NCBI GenBank assembly: GCA_963796685.1
Contig: CAWCMR010000025.1
Coordinates: 1,280,001-1,344,000 of the forward strand
Direction: 5' to 3'
DNA length: 64,000 bases
Origin: an uncultured delta proteobacterium
Lineage (GTDB): Bacteria; Myxococcota_A; Polyangia; Fen-1088
Shown here piece by piece: positions 12,458-34,693 of the stretch. Made by a program: the position numbers and the translations under genes. Under the pieces are notes generated by a model. It had not been told where the DNA came from, searched no databases, and worked only from the letters and a program-made list of their open reading frames with translations. The stretch's first letter is position 1. The number at the start of each line of letters is the position of its first letter.

Positions 12458-15400
12458 ATGGATGTCAACCCAGCTCCACCTGTCCTCAGCGAAGATCTAG
12501 CGGCGGCATCGGCCGAGGTCGTGCTTGCGGCCACCTTCACGGTGGACCCTCTGGTCGAGTCGCTCTCCTTCCTGCTGCACGAAGCTGGACTGTCCCTACC
12601 CATCGAAGTGGCTCCCTACGGTCAGGTGTTCCAGCAACTGCTCGATCCTGCGAGCCGCTTCGCGCTCAATCGTGCCGGAGTAAACGTTCTTCTGATTCGC
12701 TTCGAAGACTGGTGGCGCGACGCGCATGGCATCGTCGACAAGGATGTGCTCGAGCGGAACGCGACCGATTTGATATCGGGCTTGAGGGAGGCAGCCAGGG
12801 TCGGTCCGACCCCCATCGTGCTCTGCGTCTGCCCACCGTCCGCGGCGGTCGCGGCCGACGAAGAAACAAAGGCTCTCCTCTGCAAGCTCGCGGACAGGCT
12901 GCATGATGCAATCGACCAAACGCCGGGTGTACGGGTTCTGTCCATGGATTGGGCCCAAGCATGGGATCCCTCGGTGCTCCACGATCCAGAAGGGGATAGT
13001 CTCGGGCACGTGCCGTATACGCGGCGGTTCTTTGCCGCTTTGGGAAGGGAGATCGGCCGTGAGGTTCACGCCCTCAAGACCTCGCCGGTCAAGGTCCTCG
13101 TGCTTGATTGCGACAACACCCTATGGGGTGGCGTGGTGGGAGAAGACGGTCCGGCGGGCATCGAGCTGACGCCTCGCTATCTCAACCTCCAGAGGCTCGT
13201 GCTCGAAAAGAAGCAGAAAGGCATGCTGCTTTGCCTTGCCAGCAAGAACAACGAGGCCGACGTCCTGGAGGTTTTCGAGCAGCGCAAGGACATGCTGCTG
13301 CGCCAGGAAGACATTGTCGCCATGCGCGTGAACTGGCTGCCCAAGTCAAAGAACCTCCAGGCTCTTGCCGACGAGCTGAACCTCGGGCTCGACAGCTTCG
13401 CCTTCATCGACGACAACCCTCTCGAATGCGTGGAAGTCGAAGCCAGTTGTCCGGGAGTGCTTGTCTTGTCGCTGGCCGATGCCCAAGATCCGGCTGGATA
13501 CCTCGGCAACGTCTGGCCGCTCGATGTTCTGTACGTCACCGATGAGGATCGTCGCCGCAGCGAGATGGTTCGCGATAACCTCTCACGCGACCGCTTGGCC
13601 AAGTCTGTTGGGGATCTGGCCAGTTTCCTGGCCGCCCTTGACCTGCGCGTTGACTTTGCCGAACCCCAAACGGGGCAGTTGGCCCGGGTCGCGCAGCTTA
13701 CCCAACGTACCAACCAGTTCAACTTCACCACACGGCGGCGCAGCGAGCTGGAGATCGAGCAACTCGCGAAGCAGGGCCTCGAATGCCGCGTGGTCGAGGT
13801 TCGAGATCGCTTTGGCGACTACGGCTTGGTCGGAGTGGTCATCTTTTCACGGACCCAGGATGCGCTGGTCTTGGATACCTTCTTGCTAAGCTGCCGTGTG
13901 CTCGGTCGCGGCGTCGAGCACGCGATCATGCGTGAGTTGGGAACGCTGGCTCGGGGGCGAGGCCTGGGGCGCATCGAGATTCCGTTCGTTGCCAGCAAGA
14001 AGAACATGCCGGCCCGGCGGTTCTTGGACAGCCTCGAGGCGCAGGAGCGGGATGTACCTGGCGGAGGAGCTCTGTTCACGCTCTCAGTCGAGCGGGCCTG
14101 CGAGCTCGCCTATGCGCCGGAAGGCGAGCCCGTCCAGAATACTGAGGACACTACGCAAAGACCGAGCTTGCCGCCGGAGGAAGGTGTCTCTCGGTCCAAG
14201 CGCTGGAACCGGCTGGCCCGGACCCTCGAGAGCGAGGAGAAGCTCCTGGCAAGCCTGGAAAGGAATAGCCACCGTGCGCGCCTAAGCGGCGAACGTCCGG
14301 TCTTGCCCAAGAGCGAAACCGAACGCAAGCTCGCAGCGATCTGGTGCGAAGTGCTGGGTCTCGATGAGGTTGGTATCCACGACGACTATGTCTCCGATCT
14401 CGGAGGTACGTCCCTTCTGGCCGTTACGATCTTCGCGCGTATCGAGCGCGAATTGGGCGCGCACCTACCCTTGTCCGCGTTGGTGGAAACACCCACCATT
14501 GCCGGCATCGCCCTGCTCATCGATCGGCCACGCGATCGGCGATCGGTGGTGTTGCTCCACGCAGGGGGCCCTGCGGTTCCGCTTTTTCTCGTTCACGACG
14601 CCGATGGCGAGACCTTGCTGTACCGCAACTTGGCGCAACGGCTTGGCGATCGATCAGTCTACGGGATCCAACCTCATGCCCGGCCCGAGATCCCCATCAC
14701 GCACACCAGCATCAGCGACATGGCCGCTCACTATGTTGGGGAGATGCGCAAGGTTCGCCCACAGGGACCCTACCTTCTCGGCGGCTTATGTGCCGGCGGG
14801 GTCATCGCCTACGAGATGGCGTTGCAGTTCGAAGATATGGGCGAGACCGCCAAGCTCGTCGCCGTTTTCGATGCAGCCGCCCCAGAAGCCAAACGTAGAC
14901 CCAGCCTCGAAAACCACCGGCGCCTAGAACGCATTCGCCTGGTCTTGGGTGAGGATTCGCCCGGCAGGGTGGTCCGGACTGTGGCGGGGAAGGTGGGCAA
15001 CTATGCTGCCTTTCAAGTGCACAATGGGATCAAGCACGTCTGGGACCGCGCGGCGGTGGCCAGCTTGCGCTTCTGTCTGGATCGGGGTCTTCCGCTTCCG
15101 CCTTGGGCACGCAGCCTCGACGTGCGCAGCGTCTACAACGTCGCGGAGGCCGAGTACCGTCCGCGGCGGCCCTTGCGCGAAGAAATCCTCCTATTCCGTG
15201 CCAGCGAAGGCGAAGGGACTGAAGAGCCCTACGTTCGTCTCTATGTGGATCCCTTGCTCGGCTGGGGGCAATCCAGCCAGCGCGGCGCACGCGCCTTCGA
15301 TGTCCCGGGCGGGCACGGGAGCATGCTTCAGGAACCAAACGTGGCCGTGCTTGCGGAGATTTTGCGTTCCTATCTCGGGCCCGCCCCCATCGTGACCTGA
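12458..15400 (+). CDS. FkbH-like glyceryl transferase (HAD-IIIC plus GNAT-like) fused to a carrier-protein domain and a thioesterase domain
   Basis: VLDCDNTLWGGVVGEDG (DxDxT), SKNN, FIDDNP, QLTQRTNQFN, DRFGDYGLVG, LLSCRVLGRGVE; carrier DLGGTSLL; TE GPYLLGGLCAGG ... VPGGHGSML. Confidence 0.9.
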   Translation: MDVNPAPPVLSEDLAAASAEVVLAATFTVDPLVESLSFLLHEAGLSLPIEVAPYGQVFQQLLDPASRFALNRAGVNVLLIRFEDWWRDAHGIVDKDVLERNATDLISGLREAARVGPTPIVLCVCPPSAAVAADEETKALLCKLADRLHDAIDQTPGVRVLSMDWAQAWDPSVLHDPEGDSLGHVPYTRRFFAALGREIGREVHALKTSPVKVLVLDCDNTLWGGVVGEDGPAGIELTPRYLNLQRLVLEKKQKGMLLCLASKNNEADVLEVFEQRKDMLLRQEDIVAMRVNWLPKSKNLQALADELNLGLDSFAFIDDNPLECVEVEASCPGVLVLSLADAQDPAGYLGNVWPLDVLYVTDEDRRRSEMVRDNLSRDRLAKSVGDLASFLAALDLRVDFAEPQTGQLARVAQLTQRTNQFNFTTRRRSELEIEQLAKQGLECRVVEVRDRFGDYGLVGVVIFSRTQDALVLDTFLLSCRVLGRGVEHAIMRELGTLARGRGLGRIEIPFVASKKNMPARRFLDSLEAQERDVPGGGALFTLSVERACELAYAPEGEPVQNTEDTTQRPSLPPEEGVSRSKRWNRLARTLESEEKLLASLERNSHRARLSGERPVLPKSETERKLAAIWCEVLGLDEVGIHDDYVSDLGGTSLLAVTIFARIERELGAHLPLSALVETPTIAGIALLIDRPRDRRSVVLLHAGGPAVPLFLVHDADGETLLYRNLAQRLGDRSVYGIQPHARPEIPITHTSISDMAAHYVGEMRKVRPQGPYLLGGLCAGGVIAYEMALQFEDMGETAKLVAVFDAAAPEAKRRPSLENHRRLERIRLVLGEDSPGRVVRTVAGKVGNYAAFQVHNGIKHVWDRAAVASLRFCLDRGLPLPPWARSLDVRSVYNVAEAEYRPRRPLREEILLFRASEGEGTEEPYVRLYVDPLLGWGQSSQRGARAFDVPGGHGSMLQEPNVAVLAEILRSYLGPAPIVT

Positions 15401-15475
15401 GGCGGGGCCCGCGTGAACGACAAGCACCCGCGAGCGCCGCGGAATCCGACTCGTGATATGTAGGAGCTCCTGCTC

Positions 15476-16288
15476 ATGTCCGAGCTCGCCACGACAGCTC
15501 CGGTGACGGACCCCATCCCGATGGCTTCGCTGATGGGACTTCGCCTGGCGTGTATCGACTGCCGCAGTTTGGTTGACCATATCTTCGCGTCGCTGGGCAA
15601 GGGGCGCGGCGGGTGGCTCATCACGGCGAATCTCGACTTCTTGCGCCGCTATGTTGGCGATCCGGAAGCGCGCAGGCTCTACGACGCCGCAGACATTCGC
15701 GTGGCCGATGGCATGCCACTGGTGTGGGCTTGCTCGGTTCAAGGCGACAAGCTTCCCGAGCGCGTGGCGGGCTCGTCTCTGGTTTGGCCGGTGATCGAGC
15801 GAGCCGCTCGAGAAGGGCGTTCTTTGTACCTGCTGGGCGGAGCTCCGGGCGCGAGTGCGCGCGCGGCCAAGGTGCTGGTCGACAAGCATCCCTCCCTCAA
15901 TGTCTGTGGCGCCACCAGTCCCACGCTCGGAAGCCCGCCGTCGTCCAGGGACATCGAGCTTGTCGTGGCCGAGCTCGAGAAGGCAAAGCCGGATATCTTG
16001 TTCGTGGGCTTGGGATCTCCCAAACAGGAACAGCTGATTCGCGTTTTGCGTCAGCACCTACCGTCCACGTGGATGGTAGGCGTCGGCATCAGCTTCAGTT
16101 TCATCGCCGGGGACTTGAAGCGCGCGCCGGCTTGGATGCGAAAGATGGGAATCGAATGGGTCCACCGTCTGATTCAGGATCCCCGACGGCTGACCAAGCG
16201 TTACCTGGTCGAGGACTTGCCGTTTGTCCTGCGGCTGTTTCCCCATGCATTGGGGGTTCGGCTGCAACGCGCCCACAAGCGTGATTAG
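15476..16288 (+). CDS. WecB/TagA/CpsF family glycosyltransferase (GT26)
   Basis: TANLDF, ADGMPLVW, ERVAGS, FVGLGSPKQE, RAPAWMRKMGIEW, RRLTKRYL. Confidence 0.93.
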   Translation: MSELATTAPVTDPIPMASLMGLRLACIDCRSLVDHIFASLGKGRGGWLITANLDFLRRYVGDPEARRLYDAADIRVADGMPLVWACSVQGDKLPERVAGSSLVWPVIERAAREGRSLYLLGGAPGASARAAKVLVDKHPSLNVCGATSPTLGSPPSSRDIELVVAELEKAKPDILFVGLGSPKQEQLIRVLRQHLPSTWMVGVGISFSFIAGDLKRAPAWMRKMGIEWVHRLIQDPRRLTKRYLVEDLPFVLRLFPHALGVRLQRAHKRD

Positions 16289-16300
16289 AACCAGCCCGAC

Positions 16301-17325
16301 TTAGGCGCGCGAAGGCTCTGCAATCTTCACGAGCTGTTTGCCCTGGTTTTCGCCTGTGAAGAGGCGATTGAGGGCTGCGGGAGCGTTCTCGAAGCCATCG
16401 ACGATGTCGACACGATCCTTGAGTCTACCTTCGCACAGCCAGCCGGAGAGAGCGGTGGTTGCCTCAGCAGTCCGATGGGCATAGTCGAGGAAATTGAAGC
16501 CCTCCATCCGACCGCGCTGCACCAGCAGCCGAAGGTAGTTCTTGGGTCCCGGCGGTAGCATCTCGTCGTTGTAGCCAGAGATTGCGCCGCAGATCACGAC
16601 GCGCCCCCTGAGCGCCAGAAAAACCAGAGCCGCGTCAAGAATGACTCCGCCGACATTGTCGAAGAATACGTCGATCCCGCGCGGACACTGTGCCCGCAGT
16701 GCGGTTATGAGGTTCTCGCTCTTGTAGTCGATGGTACCGTTGAACCCAGCTCCTGGGTGAGGTAGCGGCATTTCTCCGATCCCCCTGCGATGCCGACGAC
16801 TCGGCAACCGATGAGCTTCGCGATCTGCCCCACGACAGAGCCCGTGGCTCCCGCGGCGCCTGACACCACGACGGTCTCGCCAGCCTTGGCGCCTCCCACG
16901 TCGAGCAAGCCGAAGTAGGCCGTGAGTCCCGTCAGGCCGAGTGCGCTCATCCCAGTTGGGATGGAGAATTCGTCTGGGATGGTCAGGATGGGGAGACTTT
17001 CAGATTGCTTCGCCACCGCGTAGTCCTGCCAACCAAACAGGCCCTGCACGCGCTGACCAGGCGCAAATCGTGGATCGCGGGACCGCACCACCTCGCCGCC
17101 AGCGAACGAGCGCACGACCCCGCCAAGGGGAATCATTGGCATGTAAGTATCGCGAGCCATCCAGCCTCGCTGGGTTGGATCGCACGACAGGAAGACGTTG
17201 TGCACGAGGATCTCGCCCTCGCCCGGCTCGGGAACATCGGTCTCGTTCAAGCGAAGATCCTCGACGCCGACCGCCCCCTTGGGGCGGCGAGCAAGGAGCC
17301 ATTGCCTATTTATTCCATGCGTCAT
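16301..17325 (-). CDS. NADP-dependent MDR oxidoreductase (CurA/YncB/PTGR1 alkenal reductase family); apparent -1 frameshift near 16743
   Basis: NRQWLLARRPKG, LSCDPTQRGWM, GLTAYFGL, VVSGAAGATGS in one frame; FNGTIDYK, FFDNVGG, CGAISGYN, GENQGKQLV in the other. Confidence 0.9.
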
Positions 17326-17469
17326 CCTGCTTCCTCTGGGCCACATTCTATCTACACAACCACCATCCCGCTACGCTCGCTAGGATTTACCAAGACCCAT
17401 CGCACCGAGCCAATCCAACGTATTGGCATTTGTTCAACGCGATGTCTATGTTTGACGGACTAGGAAATC

Positions 17470-18531
17470 ATGAGCCACAGCTTGCCAAACCTAGCTTCGG
17501 ATCTCCTCCTACTCCATGCTCCTGCATTTTTCGATTTCCGAAATCGGCGCGATATCTATTTTCCATACCTCAGCACGTCTGGGGACGTGCCCATTACGCC
17601 GCTCTACGAGTACTTTCCACTGGGATGGAAGACCCTTCAGCGCTTCTTGTCTGAACGCGACCACAGCGTCCGGATCGTCAACCTGAGTGGCCTGCTGCTT
17701 CGCTATCCTTCATTGTCTGCAAACGCCGTGTTCTCCGCCTTCGATGTGAGGCTACTCGGCATCGACCTACACTGGATGGTCCACGTGCAGGGTTCCCTGG
17801 ACGTCGCCAGCAGGTTCAAGCGCGTGCAGCCCGATGTGCCGGTCATGGCGGAAATGGAGGCCTGGATCGACCGCGCCCTTTCCCTCGGTATCCACAACGT
17901 CGACGTCTGGTTCTTCATCGGCATGCCCGAACAAGACGAGAATGCCGTGAAGGCCGAGGTAGATTATTGTGCACGTCTCCTGGATAAGTTTTCCGGCCGA
18001 CGAGTGACGCCCTTGCTGTGCCCCATGATGCCCTTCCTCGATCCCGCCTCGACTTTCTTCGAGAATCCCGAAGAGAACGGCTACCACGTTTTCTACCGCA
18101 CCGTGGAAGAACACCGATGTGGCATGCAGCGCGCCTCGGTCATCAATCGCATCAACTACGAGACGCGCTGGCTTAGCCGCGCCGACCTGGTGCATGTGGG
18201 GTATCGCGCGGTTGCCGAAGTGATGCATTTGAGAGCGAAAACGCGACAACTGCCGACGAACGTGGCGAAAGCAGTGAGCCACGCCGTGAACGATGCACTC
18301 GCGTTCATCGACGTTGTTCACGAGGCAGACTGCCTGAGCAACCCGGCGGATCGCACCCGCGCCATGGAAGAGCTTGGCGACGGTATCGTCGAGCGCAACC
18401 AAGCGATCTTTTCTTCCGAGGTTGCCAATCAAGCCTTCCCGATCAATCGCCAAATTGGCGGACGCTGGTTTGATGAGATGGGCTGGACGCCGGCTCAACT
18501 CGACTGCGTTCTCCAAGCAGGCAAGTCGTGA
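17470..18531 (+). pseudogene. CloN6/TIGR04190-like B12-binding radical-SAM methyltransferase with an in-frame internal deletion (no CxxxCxxC)
   Basis: N-terminus DLLLLHAPAFFDFR..LYEYFPLG..GIDLHWMVHVQG and C-terminus DVWFFIGMPEQ..PFLDPAS..FENPEENGY match this family as I recall it, but they join directly near 17845 with no radical-SAM core. Confidence 0.65.
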
Positions 18532-18666
18532 GTACGACTTTTCCTATTTCATAACGCAACGGTCCTGTCCCGTGTCGCGGACCGTCGCCGATCATCAAAA
18601 AATCGCCTGGACGGCGACAGCCTGTCCGTTCAACCTTAGACCACAAAGCCTCTGCAGCCCCCTAAC

Positions 18667-19827
18667 ATGCTGTCTTCGTTGAAATTGGATCTTTCCCCGT
18701 CGCAAAGCGAACGCGTTGAAGCGGTTCTGCGTTTCGCACGAACGCGTCTTTCCCCGGGCGCCAGAAAGCGAGAAGCCTCAGGCGCCTTCGATCGCAAGTT
18801 GTGGGACGAATGCTCCGAGTTCGGATTGGCCGGGCTACCCATTCCCGAAGCATGGGGTGGCGGCGGACTTGATGCCGTGGACACCATGCTGGTCGTCGAG
18901 ACCCTGGGTAAGGGCTGCGAAGACGGTGGGCTCGTGTTTTCATTGTGCGCGCACATGTTCGCCTCGGCGGTCCCCATCTGGCGTTCTGGGGCAAAAGAGA
19001 TTCACGAGCGCTACTTGCGCGACATCGCCAGCGGGAAGCTCCTGTGCGCCAATGGCACGACCGAGCCGGAGGCCGGCTCCGATATCTACGCCATGAAGGC
19101 CACGGCCCGTCGCGACGGCAACGACTACGTCCTCGACGGTACCAAGTGCTTCATCACCAACGCCCCGGTGGCCGATCTCTTCCTCGTCTACGCCAAGACG
19201 AATCCCTCGGCTGGCTTCATGGGCGTCTCCGCATTCCTGTTTCCGAGCGCGACCCCTGGCGTTCGGGTCGTGCCCGAACACAGCAAGACCGGACTCAAGA
19301 CCTCGCCGTGGGGGACCATCTATCTCGAAGAATGCCGCGTCCCTGTCGAATCGCGTGTGGGTCCCGAGGGCTCGGGCGCCGCCCTGTTCGGCGAATCGAT
19401 GATTTGGGAGCGCTGCTGCCTGTTCGCCTATTACGTTGGGGCCATGGATCGAACCCTCGAACGATGCGTCGAACATGCGCGCTCGCGCAGCCAGTTTGGC
19501 CATCACATTGCGTCGTACCAGGCCGTTCAGAATCGCATCGTGGGCATGAGGCTGCGCCTGGAAACCAGTCGCCTGCTGCTCTACCGTACGGGCGAGCTGC
19601 ATCGGCAAGGCAAGCGCTGCGACGATGCTGTTGCCATGTGCAAACTGTGGATCTCCGAGGCGGCGGTACAATCGGGGCTTGATGCCATCCAGATTTTCGG
19701 AGGTACCGGCGTGGTTACCGAAACCGGCGTTGATGCATTGTTGCGCGACGCGATTCCAGCGCAAATTTTTTCCGGCACATCGGAAATGCAACGGATGATC
19801 ATCGCTCGCACGATGGGACTTTCCTGA
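18667..19827 (+). CDS. L-prolyl-PCP dehydrogenase (PltE/RedW/CloN3-like acyl-CoA dehydrogenase family)
   Basis: ETLGKGCEDGGLVFSLCAHMFA, TEPEAGSD, GTKCFITNAPVAD, WERCCLFA, IFSGTSEMQR; translationally coupled to an A domain and a PCP. Confidence 0.85.
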   Translation: MLSSLKLDLSPSQSERVEAVLRFARTRLSPGARKREASGAFDRKLWDECSEFGLAGLPIPEAWGGGGLDAVDTMLVVETLGKGCEDGGLVFSLCAHMFASAVPIWRSGAKEIHERYLRDIASGKLLCANGTTEPEAGSDIYAMKATARRDGNDYVLDGTKCFITNAPVADLFLVYAKTNPSAGFMGVSAFLFPSATPGVRVVPEHSKTGLKTSPWGTIYLEECRVPVESRVGPEGSGAALFGESMIWERCCLFAYYVGAMDRTLERCVEHARSRSQFGHHIASYQAVQNRIVGMRLRLETSRLLLYRTGELHRQGKRCDDAVAMCKLWISEAAVQSGLDAIQIFGGTGVVTETGVDALLRDAIPAQIFSGTSEMQRMIIARTMGLS

Positions 19828-21389: not shown

Positions 21390-21664
21390 TGCAAGAACGA
21401 ATTCGCGCATCCGTCCATCAGTACATCGTCAGCACCTGGCTGAGCGGAGATGAGCGGGGCTTCGACGACAATACCGATCTCCTGCAGGCCGGCATCCTCG
21501 ATTCCTTCACTACGTTATCCATCACAGGCTACCTGGATGAAAGTTTTCACATCCAGCTCGATCCAGCAGAAATCAATCCCGAGAATCTGCGCAGCGTCAA
21601 TGCTCTCGTCAAGATCGTGCTCGCCAAGCTGGCAACGAGAGGCGAGAGGCCTGACAAGACTTAA
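21389..21664 (+). CDS. Peptidyl carrier protein (PltL/RedO/CloN5-like)
   Basis: ATG overlaps the upstream TAA; DLLQAGILDSF phosphopantetheine site; PENLRSV C-terminal motif. Confidence 0.88.
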   Translation: MQERIRASVHQYIVSTWLSGDERGFDDNTDLLQAGILDSFTTLSITGYLDESFHIQLDPAEINPENLRSVNALVKIVLAKLATRGERPDKT

Positions 21665-21711
21665 GTCACGGCTACCGACAAAAGTGCCCCCCAAACCCGT
21701 TCGAGGACCCC

Positions 21712-21939: not shown

Positions 21940-21978
21940 CGCCCATCGTCGGACCGCATCCTGCAAGCGAGTTTGCAC

Positions 21979-25144: not shown

Positions 25145-25183
25145 AGGCCGGAAGGTCGACGCGAAACGTAACGGCGCTCAACA

Positions 25184-25846: not shown

Positions 25847-26427
25847 TGGGGAATGATTCTGGCGGGGACACCGAACACGACCACGCCCGGTGGAACCTGC
25901 TGCGTGACCACGCTGTTGGCGCCCACAAAAGCTCCCTTGCCCACGTGAACATCCCCAACGACACAGGCGCCCGAGCCAATATCCACGCCGTCCTCAATAA
26001 CGGGCAGACACTCGGGCCGGCCAGCATCGGCCTGTCGCACCGGCCCGAAAGTCGTGTCTTGACGAATATGCACGTCATCACCAATCGACCGCGCGTTGAG
26101 CAGGATCGATCCGTGATGCCAGATACGAAACCGGCGGCCGACGCGAGTCGTATTCGGTAGACAAATCCCCCATACCCAATCAATGGCCGTGGTCAAGACC
26201 TTGTGAGCAGAAAGCAACGGACGTCGCAGCGCCGCGGGACTCACCCGGCTGGCGCGTGTCCCCAAGCGATGCGCGGCAACGGCCCAGAAACCCGGCTCCA
26301 GCCAAAGCCGGTCGTGGGTGGTGAAGTCCTCAGCCAGGAGCTCGCGTAGCGACAGTTCCTCTGCGCTGCGTTTGTCCAAGCCGCGGGCCGAATTTTCATT
26401 GGGCGACTGTCGCGGTGGGTCGGTCAT
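25843..26427 (-). CDS. CysE/WcaB/EpsC-like hexapeptide-repeat O-acyltransferase (paralogue)
   Basis: LLAEDFTTH..PGFWAVAAHRLG, WHHGSI, PVIEDGVDIGSGA, GANSVV, GVPAR. Confidence 0.85.
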   Translation of the reverse strand: MTDPPRQSPNENSARGLDKRSAEELSLRELLAEDFTTHDRLWLEPGFWAVAAHRLGTRASRVSPAALRRPLLSAHKVLTTAIDWVWGICLPNTTRVGRRFRIWHHGSILLNARSIGDDVHIRQDTTFGPVRQADAGRPECLPVIEDGVDIGSGACVVGDVHVGKGAFVGANSVVTQQVPPGVVVFGVPARIIPQ

Positions 26428-27306: not shown

Positions 27307-27391
27307 GCAAGGTTGTCCGATCTTCGCGTTCGCGATGACCCGAAATTCGCAGACCGCACATCCTGAAGGCATGCGTTCGGCCAACCGAGGG

Positions 27392-28438
27392 TTACTCTGA
27401 ATCACGCGTCGGCCGCCACTCTCGGGCAGGTTCAATCGTCCGGTTGGCTTTGCGAAGCACGCTGTACCGCAAGACATCGCGGGCAAAGTACGGGACGCTT
27501 GTTCGACCATGTCCTTTCAGCATCTCCTTCGTCTCGCCAACCACGTGAGCCAAGAGGAGGACAACATCCGTGGCCATGGCATAGGGCACGCCGTGGTTCT
27601 TGGCAAAGTACCTGCGCCGCGACTCGAACCAGTAACCGGGCAGCCGCTTGTTTCCCTCCTGCTTGCCCGTAACCCCCGTGCTTTGCCCTGCAATATGCAT
27701 GACCCTGCTTTGCGGGACGTACCAGATGGTCCAACCCGCGGCCTTGATTTTGCGGCAGAAGTCGGTTTCCTCGTAGTACAGGAAGTAGTTTTCATCCATG
27801 CCTCCGATGTTCTCGATGACCTGGCGCCGAACCATCATGGAAGCGCCTGGAAACCAGTCCACTTGCTCGGGAACGTTGCCCATGGTCCTCGCTACGATGT
27901 GCCTGTGGAGAAGCTTGCTGACCAGGCCGAATCGCAACCCGTGGTCTAGCTCACCAAGCAGGCTGGGATAGCGAAAGGCATAGGGCCAGAGTCGGCCATC
28001 CTGAGACTCGAAACTGCTGCCCACGATTCCCGCATCGTCGTGCCGATCGAGAAAGTCCACCAGTGCGCTGATGGCCCCACTGCGCACCTCGGTATCCGGG
28101 TTGAGCATGAGAAAGAAATCGGGCACCGTGGCCGATTCGAAGCCGTGGCGAAAACCGAGGTTGTTGCCGTAGGCGAATCCGCCATTCCGAGCCGCGGATA
28201 CAACCATGATCCACTCCTGGTAGCCGGAATCCATCACCATGCGCTGGATCGGCTCGGCATCCCCAGACGCATTGTCAATAACCACAACCCGAAGCACGAT
28301 ATTGCGAGCGGCCTCGGCCGATCTCTCGCCGGCTAGCGAGGTAAGGAGGTTCTTCACCAAGATCGGGGTCTTATAGGTGACGATCACGGCTAGAACGGTA
28401 CGCTGGGGTACGGCGCGAGGTGCATTCATGAAAGTCAC
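27392..28438 (-). CDS. GT2 glycosyltransferase (rhamnosyltransferase/EpsD-like)
   Basis: VIVTYKT, VIDNASG, NGGFAYGNN, LNPDT, GGMDENYFLYYEETDFC, HIAGQS. Confidence 0.92.
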   Translation of the reverse strand: MTFMNAPRAVPQRTVLAVIVTYKTPILVKNLLTSLAGERSAEAARNIVLRVVVIDNASGDAEPIQRMVMDSGYQEWIMVVSAARNGGFAYGNNLGFRHGFESATVPDFFLMLNPDTEVRSGAISALVDFLDRHDDAGIVGSSFESQDGRLWPYAFRYPSLLGELDHGLRFGLVSKLLHRHIVARTMGNVPEQVDWFPGASMMVRRQVIENIGGMDENYFLYYEETDFCRKIKAAGWTIWYVPQSRVMHIAGQSTGVTGKQEGNKRLPGYWFESRRRYFAKNHGVPYAMATDVVLLLAHVVGETKEMLKGHGRTSVPYFARDVLRYSVLRKANRTIEPAREWRPTRDSE

Positions 28439-28744
28439 ACGATATCCTTAGCGCAATTCAGCTTGTTGGTCGCGCTGCGCTCGAGCGGTACAACCCCTCC
28501 GCCATACGTGCTCGCTGCGAACCCTGCTCAGGAAACAAGAAGGAAACCCTGGCGCCTGATTTGGGAAATTATAGTGAGTGCCCATAGCATAAGTGATACG
28601 TGCGCTAATCAGTTGCGCAAGGCGGGAGATAGCGCGTTCGCAAAGGCCAAGCAAGAGCGTGGTTTGCAAGGGCTTCCCCTTGCCCAGGACCGGCTGTCGG
28701 GGCACCATATCCCTCCTAGAACCAAAGACAGGACGCAGCAAGCC

Positions 28745-31243
28745 ATGGGCCGCGAAAGCGACGACGACGAAAAACCTACGCACGAGACGCTTAGCTTTGC
28801 TGAGTTCGCCACGCGTGGCAACGTTCAGCAGCCTGGCTCCGACAGCGCGGCGTTGATGATTGCGGAAAAGGACGGGGGGCAGCAAGTGCACGTCCTGACG
28901 CGAAATCCCACAGTCATCGGTCGTTCAAGCAAAGCGGACTTGGTTCTGTCCGACCCTGGCGTCTCCGACTTCCATGCGCGGATTTTCAAGCACAGCTTCG
29001 GCTACACGGTCGAGGACATGGGCTCCGCAGAGGGCACTTTTCTTGGCGACAGGCGCGTCAGCCATGCGCGTTTGGTCAGTGGTGACGTGCTTCGATTGGG
29101 CGCGACGATCCTCACGTTTCTGGACGAACGGGTCAACGCGACAAGGGACAGGAGCTCGTCGCTTGTGCCTGTGCGCGCCACGGTCGCCGGCATGGCACTA
29201 CGCTCGACCATCGTTCGCGATTCATACTCCCAATCGTCCCAGAGAGCACAGCAGCCACGGATCAAGCCTATTCAAGAGCGCATGCGGCGGCCCTCTGATA
29301 GCGACGAAGCCGCTCCTTCACTTGAGGATATCCTACTCAAGATCCTCCGTGCTTGGCGCTACTTCAAACGCCACGCCTGGCTGATCAGTAGTCTGGCCAT
29401 GCTCGGGCTTACCCTGGGTGCCGCGAGCTTCAAGTTCTATCCACCGGTGCGAGCCGCCATCTGCGTGGTCACTCTGCATCCGGCGCCCAGGGCCAACCCC
29501 ATCGAGCCGCAATTTCGACCGGACCCGTCAGAATCGACCCAGTTCTTTGCCGGCGCCCAGCAGGCCTTCAAGAGCAACGAAAATATCATGGCCGCACTCA
29601 AGCGGATCGGCGTTCCCAATCCAACCATCCCACAGGCTATGAGCATCGCCAAGCGCCTGAAGGTCGAGAACGACGGCAACAATACTTATGCTGCCACGCT
29701 CACACCTCCCCTCTTCGGCCGTGGGGGGGATGAGCTCGTGGGAATGCTTGACGCCCTCGTCAAGACCTACGTTGAGACCGAGATCGAGAAGATGCTGCAA
29801 ACCATCGTCGCTGAGGTCACCTTCCTGCGTTCCCAAACCGAGATTTCAGAGAAGCGCTTGGACCAGATCATGCAGGACACCGTGAAATTCCGCGAAGCCA
29901 ATTCGGATCAGATCCTCGCGCAAGGCACGCTCGCGAGTTCACCAGGAGAGCTCGAGTCCAAGCGACTCGAAGTGTCCAGCCGGATCGAGCGTTTGACGGG
30001 CGAGCTGGAAGGCGTACGTAGCCAACTCGCGCGAGGGAGCGTTCTCAGTCAGGCCAAGACGCAGGCGGCGCAGTCCGATCGCGAAGCCCTGAACAATATA
30101 AGCCGCAAATTGGCTGAGCTGCGTGCGCAAGGTTTCGCCGATGGGCATCCCGACGTGCAACGGCTGCTCACCGAGCAGAAGAACCTGCAGAAGCTCGTCG
30201 ACGACCATCTTCACTCCAATGTGACTCAGTTCGAGAAGCGCTCGAACGTCGCCTACGATAGTCTGCAGAGTCAGGCCGACCAACTGGAGGCACAGCTCAG
30301 GGCTGCACGCGCTGAGCTAGGCACCGTCGGAGCCAGCTTGCACACGCTTCGCACCGTCAGCAGCGAGTCGCCCAAGGTCAATGCACGTCTGGAGGAGCTC
30401 GTGCGCATGAAGGAGGAAGTCGAGAAACAGCATGGCTTGCTTTTCGACCGCTTGAAGCAGGCCGAAGTTCAGCTCCAGCTCGAACGCGTGTCGGCAACCT
30501 CACGCTACGAGATTGTCGTGCCTACGCGCCTGGAACCGCCGCCGGGCCGCAAAGCCTTCGCCTTGCGCATGGCCATGGGGCTCGGCCTTGGACTGCTTCT
30601 CGCAGCCATCGTGCTCGGCATCGGTGAGCTGCGCAGGGGGTTCGCCCGACTTGCCGAGAAGGGCATGGTGGCAGGTCTGCTCGTTCTTCTATTCCTGCCG
30701 CCGCTGGGTTGCGCGCATGAGGAACGATTCATTTGGGCATCCGACTTGCCACCCAAGGATTCATCGGCTGAACCCGCGGTTCGGGCGCGCGACTCCATTC
30801 TCGTGGAAGTCGAGAAGCAGCCGAGCCTCTCCGGCGAATTCGTGGTGCGAGACGATGGACACTACACCCAACCCACGGTGGGCAGCGTCCGTGTGGCCGG
30901 CTTGACCGCCCGGCAAGCCGCGGCCCAAATCGCCCTTGCGCTGAAGGATGTCGTCGTCACGCCCGTGGTTTCAGTGTGGATCACCAAGTCCCCCCCCATC
31001 CATGTCAGCGTCGTCGGCGAGGTCAAGTCACCCGGCATCTACGAAATGACCCGCGACCGCAGCTTGCTCACCGTTCTGGCTCAAGCGGGCTGGCTGACGG
31101 AGTTTGCCCACGCCGATCGTGTCTTCGTCGTACGCGCTGGCTCCAACGAGAGAATCCGTTTCCGGGTTCGCGACATCACCGCTGCCGAGCCCTTCGTCGC
31201 CCAGTTCGTGCTTGCAGACGCGGATACGGTGGTCGTGGAGTAG
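28745..31243 (+). CDS. FHA domain / polysaccharide co-polymerase (GumC/Wzc-like) / OPX (Wza-like Poly_export plus SLBB) fusion
   Basis: FHA: IGRS..VSDFHA..EDMGSAEGTF. TM1, long coiled coil with HPDV, TM2. Then a lipoprotein-signal-like MVAGLLVLLFLPPLGC and OPX motifs VRDDG..P.VG.V.VAGLT, VVGEVKSPG, LAQAG, DTVVVE. Confidence 0.85.
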   Translation: MGRESDDDEKPTHETLSFAEFATRGNVQQPGSDSAALMIAEKDGGQQVHVLTRNPTVIGRSSKADLVLSDPGVSDFHARIFKHSFGYTVEDMGSAEGTFLGDRRVSHARLVSGDVLRLGATILTFLDERVNATRDRSSSLVPVRATVAGMALRSTIVRDSYSQSSQRAQQPRIKPIQERMRRPSDSDEAAPSLEDILLKILRAWRYFKRHAWLISSLAMLGLTLGAASFKFYPPVRAAICVVTLHPAPRANPIEPQFRPDPSESTQFFAGAQQAFKSNENIMAALKRIGVPNPTIPQAMSIAKRLKVENDGNNTYAATLTPPLFGRGGDELVGMLDALVKTYVETEIEKMLQTIVAEVTFLRSQTEISEKRLDQIMQDTVKFREANSDQILAQGTLASSPGELESKRLEVSSRIERLTGELEGVRSQLARGSVLSQAKTQAAQSDREALNNISRKLAELRAQGFADGHPDVQRLLTEQKNLQKLVDDHLHSNVTQFEKRSNVAYDSLQSQADQLEAQLRAARAELGTVGASLHTLRTVSSESPKVNARLEELVRMKEEVEKQHGLLFDRLKQAEVQLQLERVSATSRYEIVVPTRLEPPPGRKAFALRMAMGLGLGLLLAAIVLGIGELRRGFARLAEKGMVAGLLVLLFLPPLGCAHEERFIWASDLPPKDSSAEPAVRARDSILVEVEKQPSLSGEFVVRDDGHYTQPTVGSVRVAGLTARQAAAQIALALKDVVVTPVVSVWITKSPPIHVSVVGEVKSPGIYEMTRDRSLLTVLAQAGWLTEFAHADRVFVVRAGSNERIRFRVRDITAAEPFVAQFVLADADTVVVE

Positions 31244-31247
31244 CGGG

Positions 31248-32564
31248 ATGTTCGCCAGCGGACTCACCATCTTGTCCGCGCTATTCGTTCTCCAGGCCGA
31301 GGTGCAGTTCGAGGCCGGCACACGAATCGAAAGCAGTATTGGGGAAGCGCCCACGGGAACGACGCAGGTAACGTCCTCGAGCGCGGCGGGTTCGCCCGTC
31401 ACAACGTCCGTGCCGGCTGAGCAACCCCAGGTTGTGGTGGCGGCAACGCCGCTCCTCAGCCTGCGCTGGCTGGATGGGGTCGACGACCTTCGTGTAGAAT
31501 CCGCCAGCAGGATTCTCTGGCGTCCGGAGCCTCTCCCCGACTCTCGTCCACTTTTTCTCGAAACACTCGAGGCAACTCACACCAGACATCCGAGTAGGCG
31601 AAGTCGACTGCGGCTCAACTTCCTGGCCAGCTACGGAGAACAGGACTACACGTCCCTCCAGCAGCAACTCTCCAATCAGCCCGCCTTGCCACTCGCCACG
31701 ACCATGCTCATGCTCGATGCGACAGGTGGCGCATCATGGCGCAGCTCGCGGCGAACAACGCTGGATATCCAGCTAGGGGCGATGTATCGCCGCGCCTTCG
31801 ACACTTCTACCCTCGTGAACGGGACAGCAGGCTCCTCCGCGTCGACCGTCCCAACGCTCCCCACCCAATATACGCTCACGGCCGCTCCCGGACTGGCCTT
31901 CGCACTCACCCGGCGCTCGAGCGTGGATGCCGTCGTTTCCGTCATCGACACGGACAGCCAAGAAGTCGAGCTCGCATCCGGGCAGCCCGGCGACTTGAAT
32001 GTACTCTTGATCCAGCCTCAGGTGGGCATTCGCGAAGAGCTCACCGGCCGGCAACAATTGCACCTGGCTGCCGGATTCAGCTATGCGGTGACACTCCGTC
32101 GAACGGACATTGCCAACCTGACCTGGTATCCCGCGCCACTCCTTCAGATCGATCTCATCTCGGTCTTGCAGCGAACGCGCACGGCTGTCGTACGATCGAC
32201 CCTGGGTGCGGGAACGACAGAGTTCGTTGACCCCGTGCTTGGCGCAGTGGTCTCGCGTGGTCTCGCCCAGGCGGGTGTAGACGCCCAACTGGGGCTGTGG
32301 AGCGTGGGGGCACGCTGCGCGTTTGCGACCGATCTCTCCAGGACTCTGCCTACCATCGGGAATGTCTTCCCTGACGAAACCGCCGTGTCGGCCGAGATCC
32401 CGGTTCGCTATCGCACGTCGAGACACCTGGTTGTCGAGCTCGGGGGGCGATACACCGAGCGCGCTCCCCACCTGGGCGCGCCGGGGTTCGCCTGGCACAA
32501 CCGAGAGCTGTGGCTGTACCTCAATCTGACTGCCTCTTCGCGGCCCTCGTCCACGCGCTCCTAG
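31248..32564 (+). CDS. Putative outer-membrane beta-barrel of EPS export (EpsX/GumB-partner-like)
   Basis: Signal-like N-terminus; many amphipathic beta-strands (VVELGGRYTER, ELWLYLNLTA); starts 4 bp after the OPX stop, as in myxobacterial epsY-epsX. Confidence 0.6.
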   Translation: MFASGLTILSALFVLQAEVQFEAGTRIESSIGEAPTGTTQVTSSSAAGSPVTTSVPAEQPQVVVAATPLLSLRWLDGVDDLRVESASRILWRPEPLPDSRPLFLETLEATHTRHPSRRSRLRLNFLASYGEQDYTSLQQQLSNQPALPLATTMLMLDATGGASWRSSRRTTLDIQLGAMYRRAFDTSTLVNGTAGSSASTVPTLPTQYTLTAAPGLAFALTRRSSVDAVVSVIDTDSQEVELASGQPGDLNVLLIQPQVGIREELTGRQQLHLAAGFSYAVTLRRTDIANLTWYPAPLLQIDLISVLQRTRTAVVRSTLGAGTTEFVDPVLGAVVSRGLAQAGVDAQLGLWSVGARCAFATDLSRTLPTIGNVFPDETAVSAEIPVRYRTSRHLVVELGGRYTERAPHLGAPGFAWHNRELWLYLNLTASSRPSSTRS

Positions 32565-32657
32565 CACTCTTGGCATCGCGCGCCTGGGTCGGTGGCCGCG
32601 CGGAGTACCGGCCACGTCGCGCGTGACCGACTTCGATGTCATCGTATGATTGGTGCC

Positions 32658-33974
32658 ATGACCAACGTCGCAGCGGATAGGTCCGACCCGAGCACCCTGG
32701 TGCTGTCCGGGGAAACTCAGGAGGCATTGGAAGCCGCCACGCTGAGGCTGGCGACCTGGATGGCTGAGGGCTGCCGCGACGGAACCGTGGGTTGGCCGCT
32801 GCCGGAGCTCGCGGCCGCCTTGCGCAACCGCTGCAAGCCGCTACCCTGGCGTCGGGCAGTGCGCGTCGATAGCTGGCGAGACGCGATCGCCGCCCTTGCG
32901 AACAAGAGCCGCCAGGTGACAGCGACGGCGATGGCGAGTCCGCCCAAACTGTTTCTATCGTTTCCCGGCCAGGGCTCGCTGCGGCCGGGGGTGCTGTCAC
33001 GACTGTCGACCGGCGCGCCAGCCTGGGCCGCGCACCTCGCGCGCTATTCCAACCTGGGCCGCGAGCTTTCCGGCTTCGACAGCGCCGTGTGGCTCGGCGA
33101 TGCCGGGGCCGACGCCGATCCCGTGCTCAAGGACAACGCCAAGACCCAGCTCGCCATCTTCTGCGCGGGCGCATCGCTTGGCCGCTGGCTGCTTGACCTC
33201 GGCTTGCGCCCCGACGGGTACATCGGCCATTCGCTCGGGGAATGGATTGGCGCCAATCTCGCGTCTGCGCTCAGCGACCAGGACGCCATACGGGCGGTCC
33301 ACCACCGCGGGCGGTTGATGCAGGCCACCGGAGCCGGCGCGGCGCTCATCGTGCGGTTGGCGCCGGATGTCCTGGCGCCGCAATTGCCCGATGAGATCTC
33401 GCTGGCCTGCGTGAACGCGCCCGACGTGTGCCTGATTAGCGGTCGCCCCGACGCGATCGCGGCCTGCGGCCAAAAGCTCTCCGCTGCGCATATCATCACA
33501 CGCTCGGCCCCTATCCACGTCGCTGTGCACTCGCCCGCGATGGACGAAGTGGTCGAGCCATTCCTGCGCGAGCTCGCGCCGCTCGACTTCGCCGCGCCCG
33601 CGACACCGCTGTTGTCGACCGTGACCGGTGAATGGATGACCGATGTGCAAGCGCGCGACCGCGAGTACTGGGCCCGGCAGCTGCGCCGCCCTGTGCGCTT
33701 CGACAAGGCTGCGAAGACGCTGCTGGCCGAGCCGTGCGCCGTCGTGCTCGAGGTGGGCATGGGCGCTGCGCTCACCAGCCTGGTGACCATGCAGGCACGC
33801 GGCCGCGCCAACCTGCGTGCCCTGCCCCTGCTGGGCCGTGACGAGCCGCCCGCCGAGGGCTACGACCCTGTCAGGGTCCACCAAGCCCTGGCCGAGCTGT
33901 GGGCCGCCGGTATCGCCATCGATCTGACGGGCGAGGTAGAACCGACGCGCCCCGCGCCCAAATTGCCGATCTAA
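32658..33974 (+). CDS. Stand-alone PKS-type acyltransferase (AT) with KS-AT linker
   Basis: FLSFPGQGS, TQLAIF, PDGYIGHSLGE, RGRLMQ, VAVHS, YWARQLRRPVRF, LEVG, LAELWAAG. Confidence 0.88.
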   Translation: MTNVAADRSDPSTLVLSGETQEALEAATLRLATWMAEGCRDGTVGWPLPELAAALRNRCKPLPWRRAVRVDSWRDAIAALANKSRQVTATAMASPPKLFLSFPGQGSLRPGVLSRLSTGAPAWAAHLARYSNLGRELSGFDSAVWLGDAGADADPVLKDNAKTQLAIFCAGASLGRWLLDLGLRPDGYIGHSLGEWIGANLASALSDQDAIRAVHHRGRLMQATGAGAALIVRLAPDVLAPQLPDEISLACVNAPDVCLISGRPDAIAACGQKLSAAHIITRSAPIHVAVHSPAMDEVVEPFLRELAPLDFAAPATPLLSTVTGEWMTDVQARDREYWARQLRRPVRFDKAAKTLLAEPCAVVLEVGMGAALTSLVTMQARGRANLRALPLLGRDEPPAEGYDPVRVHQALAELWAAGIAIDLTGEVEPTRPAPKLPI

Positions 33975-34000
33975 GTCCAAGCTAGACCGAAGTCCCGGGG

Positions 34001-34693
34001 TCACTTGCCATAGCGATCGAAGCCCCCAGAGGCCAGGCGCATCCCGGTCGCGACCATCTCGCGATCGATGACCAGGTGGCCCATGAGGCGTTCCTGGGGC
34101 AGGCCGAGGGTCCGGGCCGAGGCGATCAGCTCGGAGAAGAAGATGCCTTGTTGCGGTACGAGCTCGACATGAGCGTCGGAGAATTCAAGGTATCGCTTGA
34201 AGGTTGGGAAGAGCGCCTTGTAGGTCGTTTCCTTGGCCGAAAAGACCATGCGCGCATGGACCCCCGGGTCGGCGGCACGGTTGGCTTCGCGCAGCTCTTC
34301 TCGGTCGAGCACCAGGGACCACACCTCGGCGGGAAGAGGCAAGCGCGGCTCGGCGTCGAGGCCCAGACCCAAAGCCGTGCTTCGATGGGCAACCGCGACG
34401 GCACAGAACCCGCCCGGAAAGCCGTCGGTGTGGGTGATGGAGCCGACCACCGATGGCGGCCAGATGGGAGTACGGTCAGCCCTCGCGAGCAAGGGAAAGT
34501 CGATGATGCCAATTTCAGCCAAAGCCTTGCGTGCACAGCTTCGCCCAGCCCTGAGCTCCTTCCGTCGCTTCTCTACCGAGTTGGCAACGAGGACGGCTTC
34601 TTCGGGGCGAAGCGGCTCGTGTTCCCCATCAAGAGTTGTCTCCCTCACAACCACGCCTGGCAGGCCGAAGAAGTCAGCAAGACGCACTAGCAT
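34001..34693 (-). CDS. 4'-phosphopantetheinyl transferase (EntD/Sfp family)
   Basis: KRRKELRAGRSCAR, PIWP..VVGSITHT, GLGLDAE, FSAKETTYKA. Confidence 0.92.
   Translation of the reverse strand: MLVRLADFFGLPGVVVRETTLDGEHEPLRPEEAVLVANSVEKRRKELRAGRSCARKALAEIGIIDFPLLARADRTPIWPPSVVGSITHTDGFPGGFCAVAVAHRSTALGLGLDAEPRLPLPAEVWSLVLDREELREANRAADPGVHARMVFSAKETTYKALFPTFKRYLEFSDAHVELVPQQGIFFSELIASARTLGLPQERLMGHLVIDREMVATGMRLASGGFDRYGK

Follow-up and report, generated by a model that had tools for sequence, protein, structure and literature searches.

The locus described here raises the question why a module known from antibiotic pathways should lie among the genes for a surface polysaccharide, and what it might contribute there. 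The stretch of DNA analysed (the window, 64,000 nucleotides) corresponds to G000:C25:1280001-1344000, G000 being its source assembly. From position 3 to position 39680 the window is a Wzx/Wzy-type surface-polysaccharide locus, in the midst of which lies a cassette built around a translationally coupled run of genes at 18667-25144, with neighbouring start and stop codons overlapping or lying within 50 nt of each other. The reading favoured here, to which we assign about an even chance, is that the cassette is a portable tailoring module that places a proline-derived pyrrolyl-acyl group on a glycan. The open reading frames (ORFs) of the window were assigned by Pfam and NCBIfam profile searches, and both the genes named in a preliminary description of this DNA and the coupled operon were recovered in this way. 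The cassette and the genes next to it are as follows.

16301-17346, minus strand: NADP reductase of the PTGR/CurA type (ADH_N_2 and ADH_zinc_N; Pfam), divergent from the cassette and in two frames as assembled
17470-18531, plus strand: remnant of a B12-binding radical-SAM gene, with a partial TIGR04190 match and no Pfam match (neither Radical_SAM nor B12)
18667-19827, plus strand: PigA/RedW-type dehydrogenase of L-prolyl-S-PCP (PCP, peptidyl carrier protein) with the acyl-CoA dehydrogenase (ACAD) fold (NF053553, 566.2 bits, cut-off 500; three Acyl-CoA_dh domains)
19827-21389, plus strand: stand-alone adenylation (A) enzyme, predicted to activate proline (best PDB match PltF, 6o6e_B, E 2.1e-111)
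21392-21664, plus strand: PCP of 90 aa with the serine motif GILDSF (carrier-protein families, E 5.7e-13)
21712-21939, plus strand: acyl carrier protein (ACP) with the serine motif KVDSV (ACP families, E 1.4e-9)
21973/22019-23200, plus strand: ketosynthase (KS) with a Cys-His-His triad (ACSSG, HGTGT, GHTNG; fabF family 323.5 bits, under the cut-off of 493.75; best PDB match 9s5h_B)
23200-24405, plus strand: KS-like partner in the position of a chain-length factor (CLF; PF00109 and PF02801, E 1.4e-15 and 2e-13; best PDB match 9s5h_C)
24359-25144, plus strand: FabG-type 3-ketoacyl-ACP reductase (KR; PF13561 and PF00106; TIGR01830 275 bits, under the cut-off of 297.75)
25184-25846, minus strand: hexapeptide acyltransferase Hex1, CysE/EpsC/WcaB-like (Pfam, NCBIfam)
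25843-26427, minus strand: hexapeptide acyltransferase Hex2, a paralogue of Hex1 (Pfam, NCBIfam)

The A enzyme, the PCP and the ACAD protein had already been taken for a proline-to-pyrrole trio, and this predicted function is supported by the present analysis. The dehydrogenase exceeds the curated PigA cut-off, and among solved structures PltF gives the best match to the A enzyme. The pocket code of the latter, anchored on the conserved core motifs, reads DLFYFALVCK and is identical to that of PltF (DLLYLALVCK) at eight of ten positions, the motif positions being those that we take to equal the GrsA pocket numbering. The trio thus resembles PltF/PltL/PltE of pyoluteorin and PigI/PigG/PigA of prodigiosin synthesis, which likewise combine a stand-alone proline-type A enzyme, a free PCP and a dehydrogenase of the ACAD fold. 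In contrast to these systems, no halogenase, type I polyketide synthase (PKS) or bipyrrole enzyme accompanies the trio; instead, a discrete pair of active and inactive KS with its own ACP and KR is present, along with the hexapeptide acyltransferases.

The KS pair had also been described before, and the triad motifs bear this out: they are present in the KS, the frame of which is broken by 1 nt as assembled, whereas the partner has neither the Cys nor either of the two His residues at the aligned positions. The best PDB matches of both proteins fall into one entry, 9s5h, for which a search for the code found no paper. An AlphaFold2 model of the KS from a five-sequence alignment was too poor for a fold comparison (mean pLDDT 33.6). 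No aromatase, cyclase or dehydratase was found among the ORFs scanned in 12458-34693, and the cassette is therefore assigned neither to the aromatic nor to the highly reducing type II PKSs. In this respect it resembles type II PKS-like or FAS-like KS heterodimers that carry out few elongations (AmcF/AmcG of cispentacin; chains B and C of 9s5h), which have no cyclases or aromatases either. The AmcF model ranked sixth among the KS family matches listed, with 239 bits against a cut-off of 325; unlike AmcF/AmcG, the starter here is predicted to be pyrrolyl, and all scores lie below the cut-offs. A further parallel is offered by the 4-methoxy-2,2'-bipyrrole-5-carbaldehyde (MBC) branch of prodigiosin synthesis, in which PigJ/RedX acts together with PigH. 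By analogy, the active and the inactive KS would condense the PCP-bound pyrrolyl group with malonyl-ACP. In the window, however, there are two separate KS proteins rather than a fusion (the PigJ model gives 90.5 bits against a cut-off of 900), and the cassette contains a KR instead of a PigH-type seryl-transferase, no aminotransferase-ACP protein being present.

From these assignments a route can be proposed whose reactions, elongation count and acceptor are all predicted from sequence. It comprises two separable carrier-protein modules that would be joined within one Wzx/Wzy-type locus. The first would consist of the reductase, ACAD, A enzyme, PCP, ACP, KS, inactive KS, KR, one or two hexapeptide enzymes and sometimes an acyltransferase (AT). 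The A enzyme would load L-proline onto the PCP, and the flavoprotein would oxidise the prolyl group to pyrrolyl-2-carboxyl-S-PCP. The KS pair may then extend the pyrrolyl group once with malonyl-ACP, the malonyl group being supplied by the AT or by a housekeeping FabD, and the KR product would be 3-hydroxy-3-(pyrrol-2-yl)propanoyl-ACP. Although there is no dehydratase, the hydroxyl beside the pyrrole may leave easily and, speculatively, give an enoyl substrate for the PTGR-type reductase. Since the cassette core has no thioesterase (TE), the Hex enzymes are candidates for off-loading, in which a sugar hydroxyl or amine would receive the carrier-bound acyl group. Carrier-bound acyl donors are known for the hexapeptide enzymes LpxA and LpxD. 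Hex1 and Hex2 converge on the KR gene, and their nearest families are exopolysaccharide (EPS)-type EpsC, CysE and WcaB.

The preliminary description had allowed for a (methyl)pyrrolyl product. This methylated variant, which would depend on the radical-SAM ORF at 17470-18531, was rejected: the ORF is internally deleted and its core is gone. A homologue of 605 aa on G004:C23, which is not linked to the cassette there, has about 230 internal residues that the remnant lacks, and residues 3-126 and 125-347 of the remnant match the G004:C23 frame 684 nt apart.

The cassette was found as a unit in eight relatives, namely G003, G004, G005, G007 and G010 of the same genus as well as G579, G633 and G261. 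A PigA-like gene occurs in five of 12 congeners (80-85% identity) and, at 76%, in G261 from another family; G579 and G633, which belong to another genus, were added by way of their CLF-like genes. The ACAD orthologues are 73-85% identical across the eight relatives, and the order ACAD-A-PCP-ACP-KS-CLF-KR is kept in all eight as far as the contigs extend, that of G003 stopping within the KS. The reductase lies divergently beside the ACAD gene in the relatives except in G010, where it is 25 kb away. A hexapeptide acyltransferase gene is next to or near the KR gene in G000, G004, G007, G010, G261 and G633; orthologues of the Hex1/Hex2 pair adjoin the cassette in G004 and G007, and the Hex genes of G010, G261 and G633 are more distant. 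In an all-against-all comparison of the relatives' loci nothing else was conserved beyond the ends of the cassette.

These contexts bear directly on the link to the polysaccharide. The preliminary description proposed a pyrrolyl-acyl decoration of a surface glycan; the trio and the KS pair behind the acyl group held up, while the linkage within the genus was weakened. The test that it set, whether orthologous cassettes stay within wzx/wzy loci, weakened the proposal, in that only G261 showed some polysaccharide genes nearby, with a glycosyltransferase (GT) gene of the GT4 type 3.3 kb and a Bac_transf gene 13.6 kb from the cassette. The flanks were checked with local hidden Markov models (HMMs) for GT4, GT2, Bac_transf, Wzx, WecG, DegT, Wzy and export genes, which recovered the expected genes in control loci.

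Several results from this comparison and from the profile searches weigh against the favoured reading. Five of the seven relatives with usable flanks show no polysaccharide genes in the fetched flanks (47 kb in G007, 47 kb in G004, 28 kb in G005, 27 kb in G579 and 28.5 kb in G633). The Wzy and export genes of G010 are 36-45 kb from the cassette. Genome scans with PF00534 and PF02397 gave no hit on the cassette contigs of G007 and G005, and the nearest GT1 gene in G004 is 35 kb off. The cassette, the FkbH-type loader gene introduced below and the export core lie on different contigs in both G004 and G007. In addition, the hexapeptide enzymes are only distantly related to any characterised enzyme, and every score is under the curated cut-off. 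Accordingly, a tight link between cassette and polysaccharide is weakened by orthologous cassettes that mostly have no polysaccharide genes nearby, and only in G000, among the genomes compared, does the cassette sit amid a polysaccharide cluster. A Pfam run on 20 flanking ORFs of G007 and G004 identified a Ser/Thr kinase, a PMT-like GT, a beta-lactamase-fold protein and a PA14 protein as cassette neighbours in the former, and a GH5 cellulase, FG-GAP, MMPL, phosphoglucomutase and pilin-like proteins in the latter.

The same observations favour an autonomous small-molecule pathway, in which a pyrrolyl-hydroxyacyl ester or a product of the N-acyl-glycine type is released via a neighbouring A enzyme and carrier-TE (T-TE) protein, the position within the polysaccharide locus being a by-product of rearrangement in a plastic region. 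The cassette is self-contained in unrelated contexts, a second A enzyme and a T-TE protein follow it in G005, G579 and G633 (in G010 they are 2-9 kb away), the AT is compositionally foreign, and the polysaccharide core of G000 is visibly rearranged relative to G001 and G007. Moreover, several PigA-type loci of the same phylum sit with KS, AT or other ACAD genes rather than with glycan genes. Against such a pathway stands that neither the cassette nor the window yielded a condensation domain, an exporter, a halogenase or a resistance gene. The only transferases that travel with the cassette are the EPS-type hexapeptide acyltransferases, the carrier-TE loaders found beside it otherwise neighbour GT, Wzy or WcaJ genes, and PltF/PigA trios occur inside polysaccharide operons of other phyla. 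We regard the small-molecule pathway as the main alternative, though less likely than the tailoring module.

The loaders just mentioned would form the second module of the tailoring route, and in the window this module is represented by one gene.

12458-15400, plus strand: FkbH-ACP-TE protein of 980 aa (TIGR01686, 297.9 bits, cut-off 146.65; PF00550 at residues 624-686; PF00975)

The earlier identification of this protein as an FkbH loader was substantiated by the TIGR01686 score above the cut-off, by the DxDxT-type HAD motif DCDNT and by the fused carrier. In these features it is like the FkbH/OzmB-type loaders, which load glycerate from 1,3-bisphosphoglycerate onto an ACP as glyceryl-ACP. 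It differs from them in that the carrier is followed by a TE with a Cys nucleophile, and in that the gene occurs in polysaccharide neighbourhoods rather than PKS clusters in this genus. The TE (window 14780-14800) has Cys in the motif GLCAGG, where Ser is usual. Cys occupies this position (GLCAGG or GLCFGG) in all 11 alignable T-TE proteins of this bacterial family, with loci in the window and at L021, L022, L105, L109, L110, L111, L114, L158 and L160, whereas four acidobacterial A-T-TE proteins have Ser (GYSFGG).

Orthologues of FkbH-ACP-TE (60-63% identity) lie beside GT, WcaJ or Wzy genes in G004, G007 and G012. On G004:C11 the neighbour is a WcaJ-like gene, on G007:C75 a GT4-like gene together with an A and T-TE pair, and on G012:C49 Wzy-like and GT4-like genes together with a T-TE and A pair. 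When the Cys-type loaders of both architectures, FkbH-T-TE and A with T-TE, are considered together, all four loci with usable flanks adjoin GT, Wzy or WcaJ genes; such loaders are also beside the cassette in G005, G579 and G633 and 2-9 kb from it in G010. Most A enzymes paired with T-TE have the code DILQxGMVWK or one close to it, which we take to be of the glycine type. Those paired with the Cys type, beside Wzy/GT genes or the pyrrole cassette, are the following.

L105:8265-9665: A enzyme paired with T-TE(Cys)
L109:6436-7839: A enzyme paired with T-TE(Cys)
L111:15172-16602: A enzyme paired with T-TE(Cys)
L160:1659-3101: A enzyme paired with T-TE(Cys)
L022:8980-10410: A enzyme paired with T-TE(Cys)

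With respect to the proposed route, FkbH-ACP-TE would load glycerate and hand it to the glycan; glycerate on glycans is known from gellan. Carrier-bound glycerate on FkbH-ACP might also serve as an acceptor that is acylated by the Hex enzymes. A pyrrolyl-acyl group on glycerate would be attractive in view of the acylation of serine by CysE, serine being the amino analogue of glycerate. The Hex1/Hex2 pair and FkbH-ACP-TE co-occur in G000, G004 and G007, which is only a lead. The preliminary description had named glycerate as a possible attachment bridge. As a conserved feature this bridge was rejected, FkbH-ACP-TE and the cassette each occurring without the other: no PigA match was found in G011 and G012, which have FkbH-ACP-TE, and no FkbH-family match in the cassette-bearing G005, G010, G261 and G633, all of these genomes being incomplete. 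For G000, G004 and G007 the glycerate bridge remains no more than a lead.

The co-occurrence of Hex1/Hex2 with an FkbH-T-TE orthologue in these three genomes can also be read in favour of a different acceptor, namely an envelope lipid or glycolipid such as a species resembling diacyl-glycerate and assembled on FkbH-ACP. Both hydroxyls of glycerate, the deamino analogue of the CysE substrate serine, could be targets of the two paralogous CysE-like enzymes, and in G004 the cassette has an MMPL gene at a distance of about 11 kb. The three genomes are related, however, G579 has an FkbH gene with no Hex1/Hex2 orthologue detected near the cassette, and the window contains no lipid-synthesis genes. 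A lipid acceptor is thus considered very improbable.

In a wider search, an alignment of PigA-like proteins was used to scan one genome per species, and 80 loci were returned. A group of 22 loci with 41-48% identity stood apart from generic acyl-CoA dehydrogenases with 31-40%. Genes for Bac_transf, Wzx, GT4 or DegT were present in the fetched flanks of 11 of the 22 PigA-type loci, which come from other phyla, compared with none of the 58 generic ACAD loci. The comparison is limited in that window genes served as seeds for the HMMs, the loci stem from different taxa, and related genomes do not count as independent cases. Three loci illustrate the association. In a Desulfobulbaceae metagenome-assembled genome (MAG; L036), a run on one strand starts with WcaJ, exosortase, electron transfer flavoprotein (ETF) beta, ETF alpha, Fe-S oxidoreductase, ACAD, A enzyme and PCP (Pfam) and continues with GNAT, a polysaccharide deacetylase, a PIG-L deacetylase, GT4, a sulfotransferase and Wzx. 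An Acidiferrales MAG (L038) has Hex, ACAD, A, PCP, WcaJ and A-T-TE, and G359 from the window's own phylum has A, GT4, A, ACAD, Hex, GT4, Wzx and WcaJ. The A enzymes of these three loci carry either the PltF code DLLYLALVCK, which is found unchanged in many PigA-type loci, or DLFYLALVCK.

A separate observation concerns the position of the ETF beta/alpha and Fe-S/CCG oxidoreductase genes at L036:4842-8567, just upstream of the PigA-like dehydrogenase gene of this exosortase-type polysaccharide operon; in an anaerobe, the flavoprotein could plausibly pass its electrons to these proteins.

Other PigA-type loci show different surroundings. Those of Streptomyces, Nocardia and Actinocrispum and several of the window's phylum resemble ordinary natural-product clusters, and in Geomonas, a Bacteroidales MAG and a Desulfobacter MAG the PigA-like dehydrogenase is paired with a different pocket code. 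The paired A enzymes of L028, L031 (Geomonas), L035 and L042 read DLFNHSVSSK or DMFNLAMSSK and, judging by these residues, probably use another substrate. Geomonas propionica has an arginase-family gene 0.7 kb upstream, and a second ORF of the neighbour tally that is 60% identical also has an Arginase match. This Pfam tally covered 108 neighbouring ORFs from 19 loci (160 under a wider filter over all 22 loci) between 4 kb upstream and 5.5 kb downstream; it left out L031, L035 and L036, ORFs of <110 aa or touching the end of a locus, and the ACAD and A ORFs themselves. The ORFs of the other loci were picked as longest frames, some of which have false N-terminal extensions or are shadow ORFs. 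The tally is headed by Glycos_transf_1 (4/108), followed by sulfotransferases, Hexapep and ABC_tran (three each) and Bac_transf and Polysacc_deac_1 (two each). The glycan-gene signal among the neighbours is real but thin.

A broader reading, which we hold tentatively and at less than even chances, is that PltF/PigA-type trios constitute a widespread, undescribed glycan-tailoring module across several phyla that forms pyrrole-2-carbonyl esters or amides on surface polysaccharides. As part of this reading, trios would belong to the Wzx/Wzy or exosortase-type operons in which they are seen in Acidobacteriota, Desulfobacterota, Actinomycetota and the window's phylum, near sugar aminotransferases, de-N-acetylases and GNAT or hexapeptide acyltransferases. 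The unit of this bacterial family would have gained the KS pair and the KR, so that the acyl group is longer by two carbons, and it may work with cysteine-thioesterase loaders (of glycerate and probably of glycine) by which acyl groups are handed on to the glycan. The anatomy of the locus is solid. Evidence for its connection with the polysaccharide comes from gene neighbourhood, which is mixed within the genus; the association across phyla is a useful lead.

In G000 itself, two genes of the module are frameshifted as assembled, which also speaks against a working tailoring module, since it could mean that the cassette is in decay. In the KS gene, an additional T at 22021-22022, absent from five orthologues, shifts the frame after RRVVITGCGILS. 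The PTGR-type reductase is split into two frames near QELG|F, the orthologues of G003, G004, G005, G007, G261, G579 and G633 being in frame. If both frameshifts and the gutted radical-SAM gene were real, the cassette would be dead in G000, and the locus would specify an ordinary polysaccharide, perhaps modified with glycerate. No sequencing run was listed for the window region 16000-24000, and indels were therefore judged from marker genes. In G000, rpoB and two uvrA copies are intact, while rpoC (G000:C8:8200-12225, minus strand) occupies one frame for model positions 1-500 and 624-1146 and other frames for 508-635. This looks like a pair of compensating indels, and because the gene is essential, the temporary change of frame indicates that the assembly contains indel errors. 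The rates are alike, with about 2 indels per 14 kb of checked marker genes and about 2 per ~21 kb of window genes comparable with orthologues. Additionally, all other genes of the cassette have intact frames and share 56-88% identity with their orthologues. A complete rRNA operon within a contig of >1.3 Mb indicates that G000 is probably a long-read MAG, which likewise argues against real frameshifts. Both frameshifts are thus likely to be artefacts of the assembly, and a dead cassette appears improbable. The assembly of the closest relative, G010, seems even richer in indels: on G010:C12 (L020, L021, L105, L106) the KS, CLF, AT-like gene and ORF31104 are each in two to three frames. The insertion in the KS gene, the divergent reductase, Hex1/Hex2, the radical-SAM deletion and the Cys of the TE had all been missed in the preliminary description.

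Two further genes had been considered parts of the pathway that lie apart from the operon.

32592-33974, plus strand: stand-alone AT with the motif GHSLGE (PF00698, NCBIfam)
34001-34693, minus strand: Sfp-type phosphopantetheinyl transferase (PPTase; PF17837, PF01648)

The region of the AT (window 32001-34000) has a GC content of 0.68, compared with ~0.60 on either side, and a GC content at third codon positions (GC3) of 0.82, a composition that fits recent acquisition. An orthologue of the AT (58%) lies directly beside the cassette reductase in G007. The place of the PPTase gene among polysaccharide genes had been put forward as a link between the latter and the cassette. This inference was withdrawn, as the PPTase gene adjoins WcaJ also in G001, a genome of 90% completeness in which no PigA-like gene was found.

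The earlier statement that the cassette, FkbH-ACP-TE, AT and PPTase are interleaved with Wzx, Wzy-like, WcaJ, export and GT genes agrees with the gene content of the polysaccharide locus, the glycosyltransferases of which include GT2 and GT4 enzymes (Pfam). Its assignment to the Wzx/Wzy type follows from an initiating phosphoglycosyl transferase (PF02397), a flippase (PF13440) and an outer-membrane export protein (PF02563 with SLBB). The genes concerned are the following.

2459-4969, plus strand: fusion of a GT-like region with Wzy_C (Pfam; Wzy_C 30.5 bits, under the cut-off of 31.7), with nine hydrophobic segments by hydropathy
5003-6328, minus strand: Wzx-like flippase (PF13440, Pfam; hydropathy)
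15476-16288, plus strand: WecG/TagA-family glycosyltransferase of the polysaccharide core (PF03808, E 6.5e-55)
27392-28438, minus strand: GT2 glycosyltransferase of the polysaccharide core (Pfam), with a 38% orthologue within the G007:C5 core
28463-31243, plus strand: export protein with FHA, Poly_export and SLBB domains, part of the conserved locus core (Pfam)
34719-36128, minus strand: WcaJ/WbaP-type initiating phosphoglycosyl transferase (PF02397, E 1.8e-63; CoA_binding_3)
38493-39680, minus strand: DegT/ArnB/PseC-like sugar aminotransferase at the right edge of the locus (PF01041, E 1.2e-129; NCBIfam)

Of 12 congeners, 11 encode the export protein, and WcaJ orthologues of 73-74% identity occur in G001 and G007. 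The ORF at 31104-32564 (ORF31104), considered in the search for a co-polymerase, has one N-terminal hydrophobic segment and no family match (Pfam). The core gene order is GT4c / WcaJ-PPTase-export-ORF31104 in G001 and GT2b-ORF31104-export-WcaJ / GT4c-WecG in G007:C5, where the WecG orthologue (69%) adjoins GT4c; the core of G000 is rearranged with respect to both. A repeat search over 11000-36500 revealed no repeats flanking the cassette but only two-copy matches of 18-30 nt with 73-89% identity, which were taken as chance. In line with the preliminary description, no efflux pump or resistance gene was seen among the ORFs scanned. No ABC, MFS, RND or MMPL family was found among them either, although eight ORFs have no family match, so that the absence of a transporter is unproven.

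The source assembly comprises 26 contigs and 7.3 Mb, with a completeness of 88.6% and a contamination of 6.5%. The rRNA operon at 45344-51095 (minus strand) accounts for a low-GC stretch of the window without long ORFs and is composed as follows.

45344-45460, minus strand: 5S rRNA
45595-48612, minus strand: 23S rRNA
49202-49388, minus strand: two tRNAs
49533-51095, minus strand: 16S rRNA

Beyond the DegT gene lie genes for BamD, a Mur-ligase fusion and tyrosyl-tRNA synthetase (Pfam). The three-domain Mur ligase (41601-43439, plus strand) is fused to a C-terminal GNAT domain. Farther along the window are a stand-alone HNH endonuclease (53246-53902, minus strand) and a caspase-domain protein with a weak match to outer-membrane-protein beta-barrels (62134-63735, plus strand). 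At 56195-58238, a proB-like gene (amino-acid kinase and PUA, minus strand) and a proC-like gene (pyrroline-5-carboxylate reductase, plus strand) overlap in head-to-head orientation at a distance of about 20 kb from the locus; they represent housekeeping proline synthesis, and no link to the cassette is claimed.

Carrier-dependent decoration of glycans has precedents, among them Dlt D-alanylation and the tetronate genes of Vibrio cholerae O1. Like these systems and the flagellar glycan locus of Campylobacter jejuni, the present locus combines an adenylating or loading enzyme and a small carrier with glycan genes; unlike it, none of them uses a proline-to-pyrrole trio or a KS pair. In C. jejuni, the FkbH-domain gene cj1302 is placed in the flagellar glycosylation region (PMC7099621).

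A carrier-made pyrrole that ends as a sugar ester is also known: in clorobiocin and coumermycin, 5-methylpyrrole-2-carboxyl is transferred to noviose. Clorobiocin and coumermycin are products of small-molecule antibiotic pathways, however, and the radical-SAM ORF of the present locus, which might have suggested C-methylation, is only a remnant. The parts of the cassette belong to known families. No paper was found that describes their combination, a discrete KS pair primed with pyrrolyl alongside a KR and acyltransferases of the EPS type, together with trios in polysaccharide operons. On the other side of the balance, no paper was found that links pyrroles to polysaccharide loci, and a pyrrole substituent on a glycan is unreported in the literature searched, which was mostly without subscription journals.

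The charge and antigenicity of bacterial surface polysaccharides, their recognition by phages and their material properties are determined by non-carbohydrate substituents. The locus offers several pieces that lend themselves to testing: a discrete KS pair for which a pyrrolyl starter is predicted, hexapeptide acyltransferases of the EPS type that may use carrier-bound acyl groups, and a carrier-TE family with a cysteine nucleophile in polysaccharide loci. Should the cassette instead belong to a small-molecule pathway, it would still represent an undescribed pathway of a poorly studied lineage. If the tailoring of a glycan with pyrrolyl-acyl groups is true, genome-mining pipelines would be mislabelling such loci as natural-product clusters, and a textbook antibiotic-pathway module would double as a glycan-modifying tool in many uncultured phyla.

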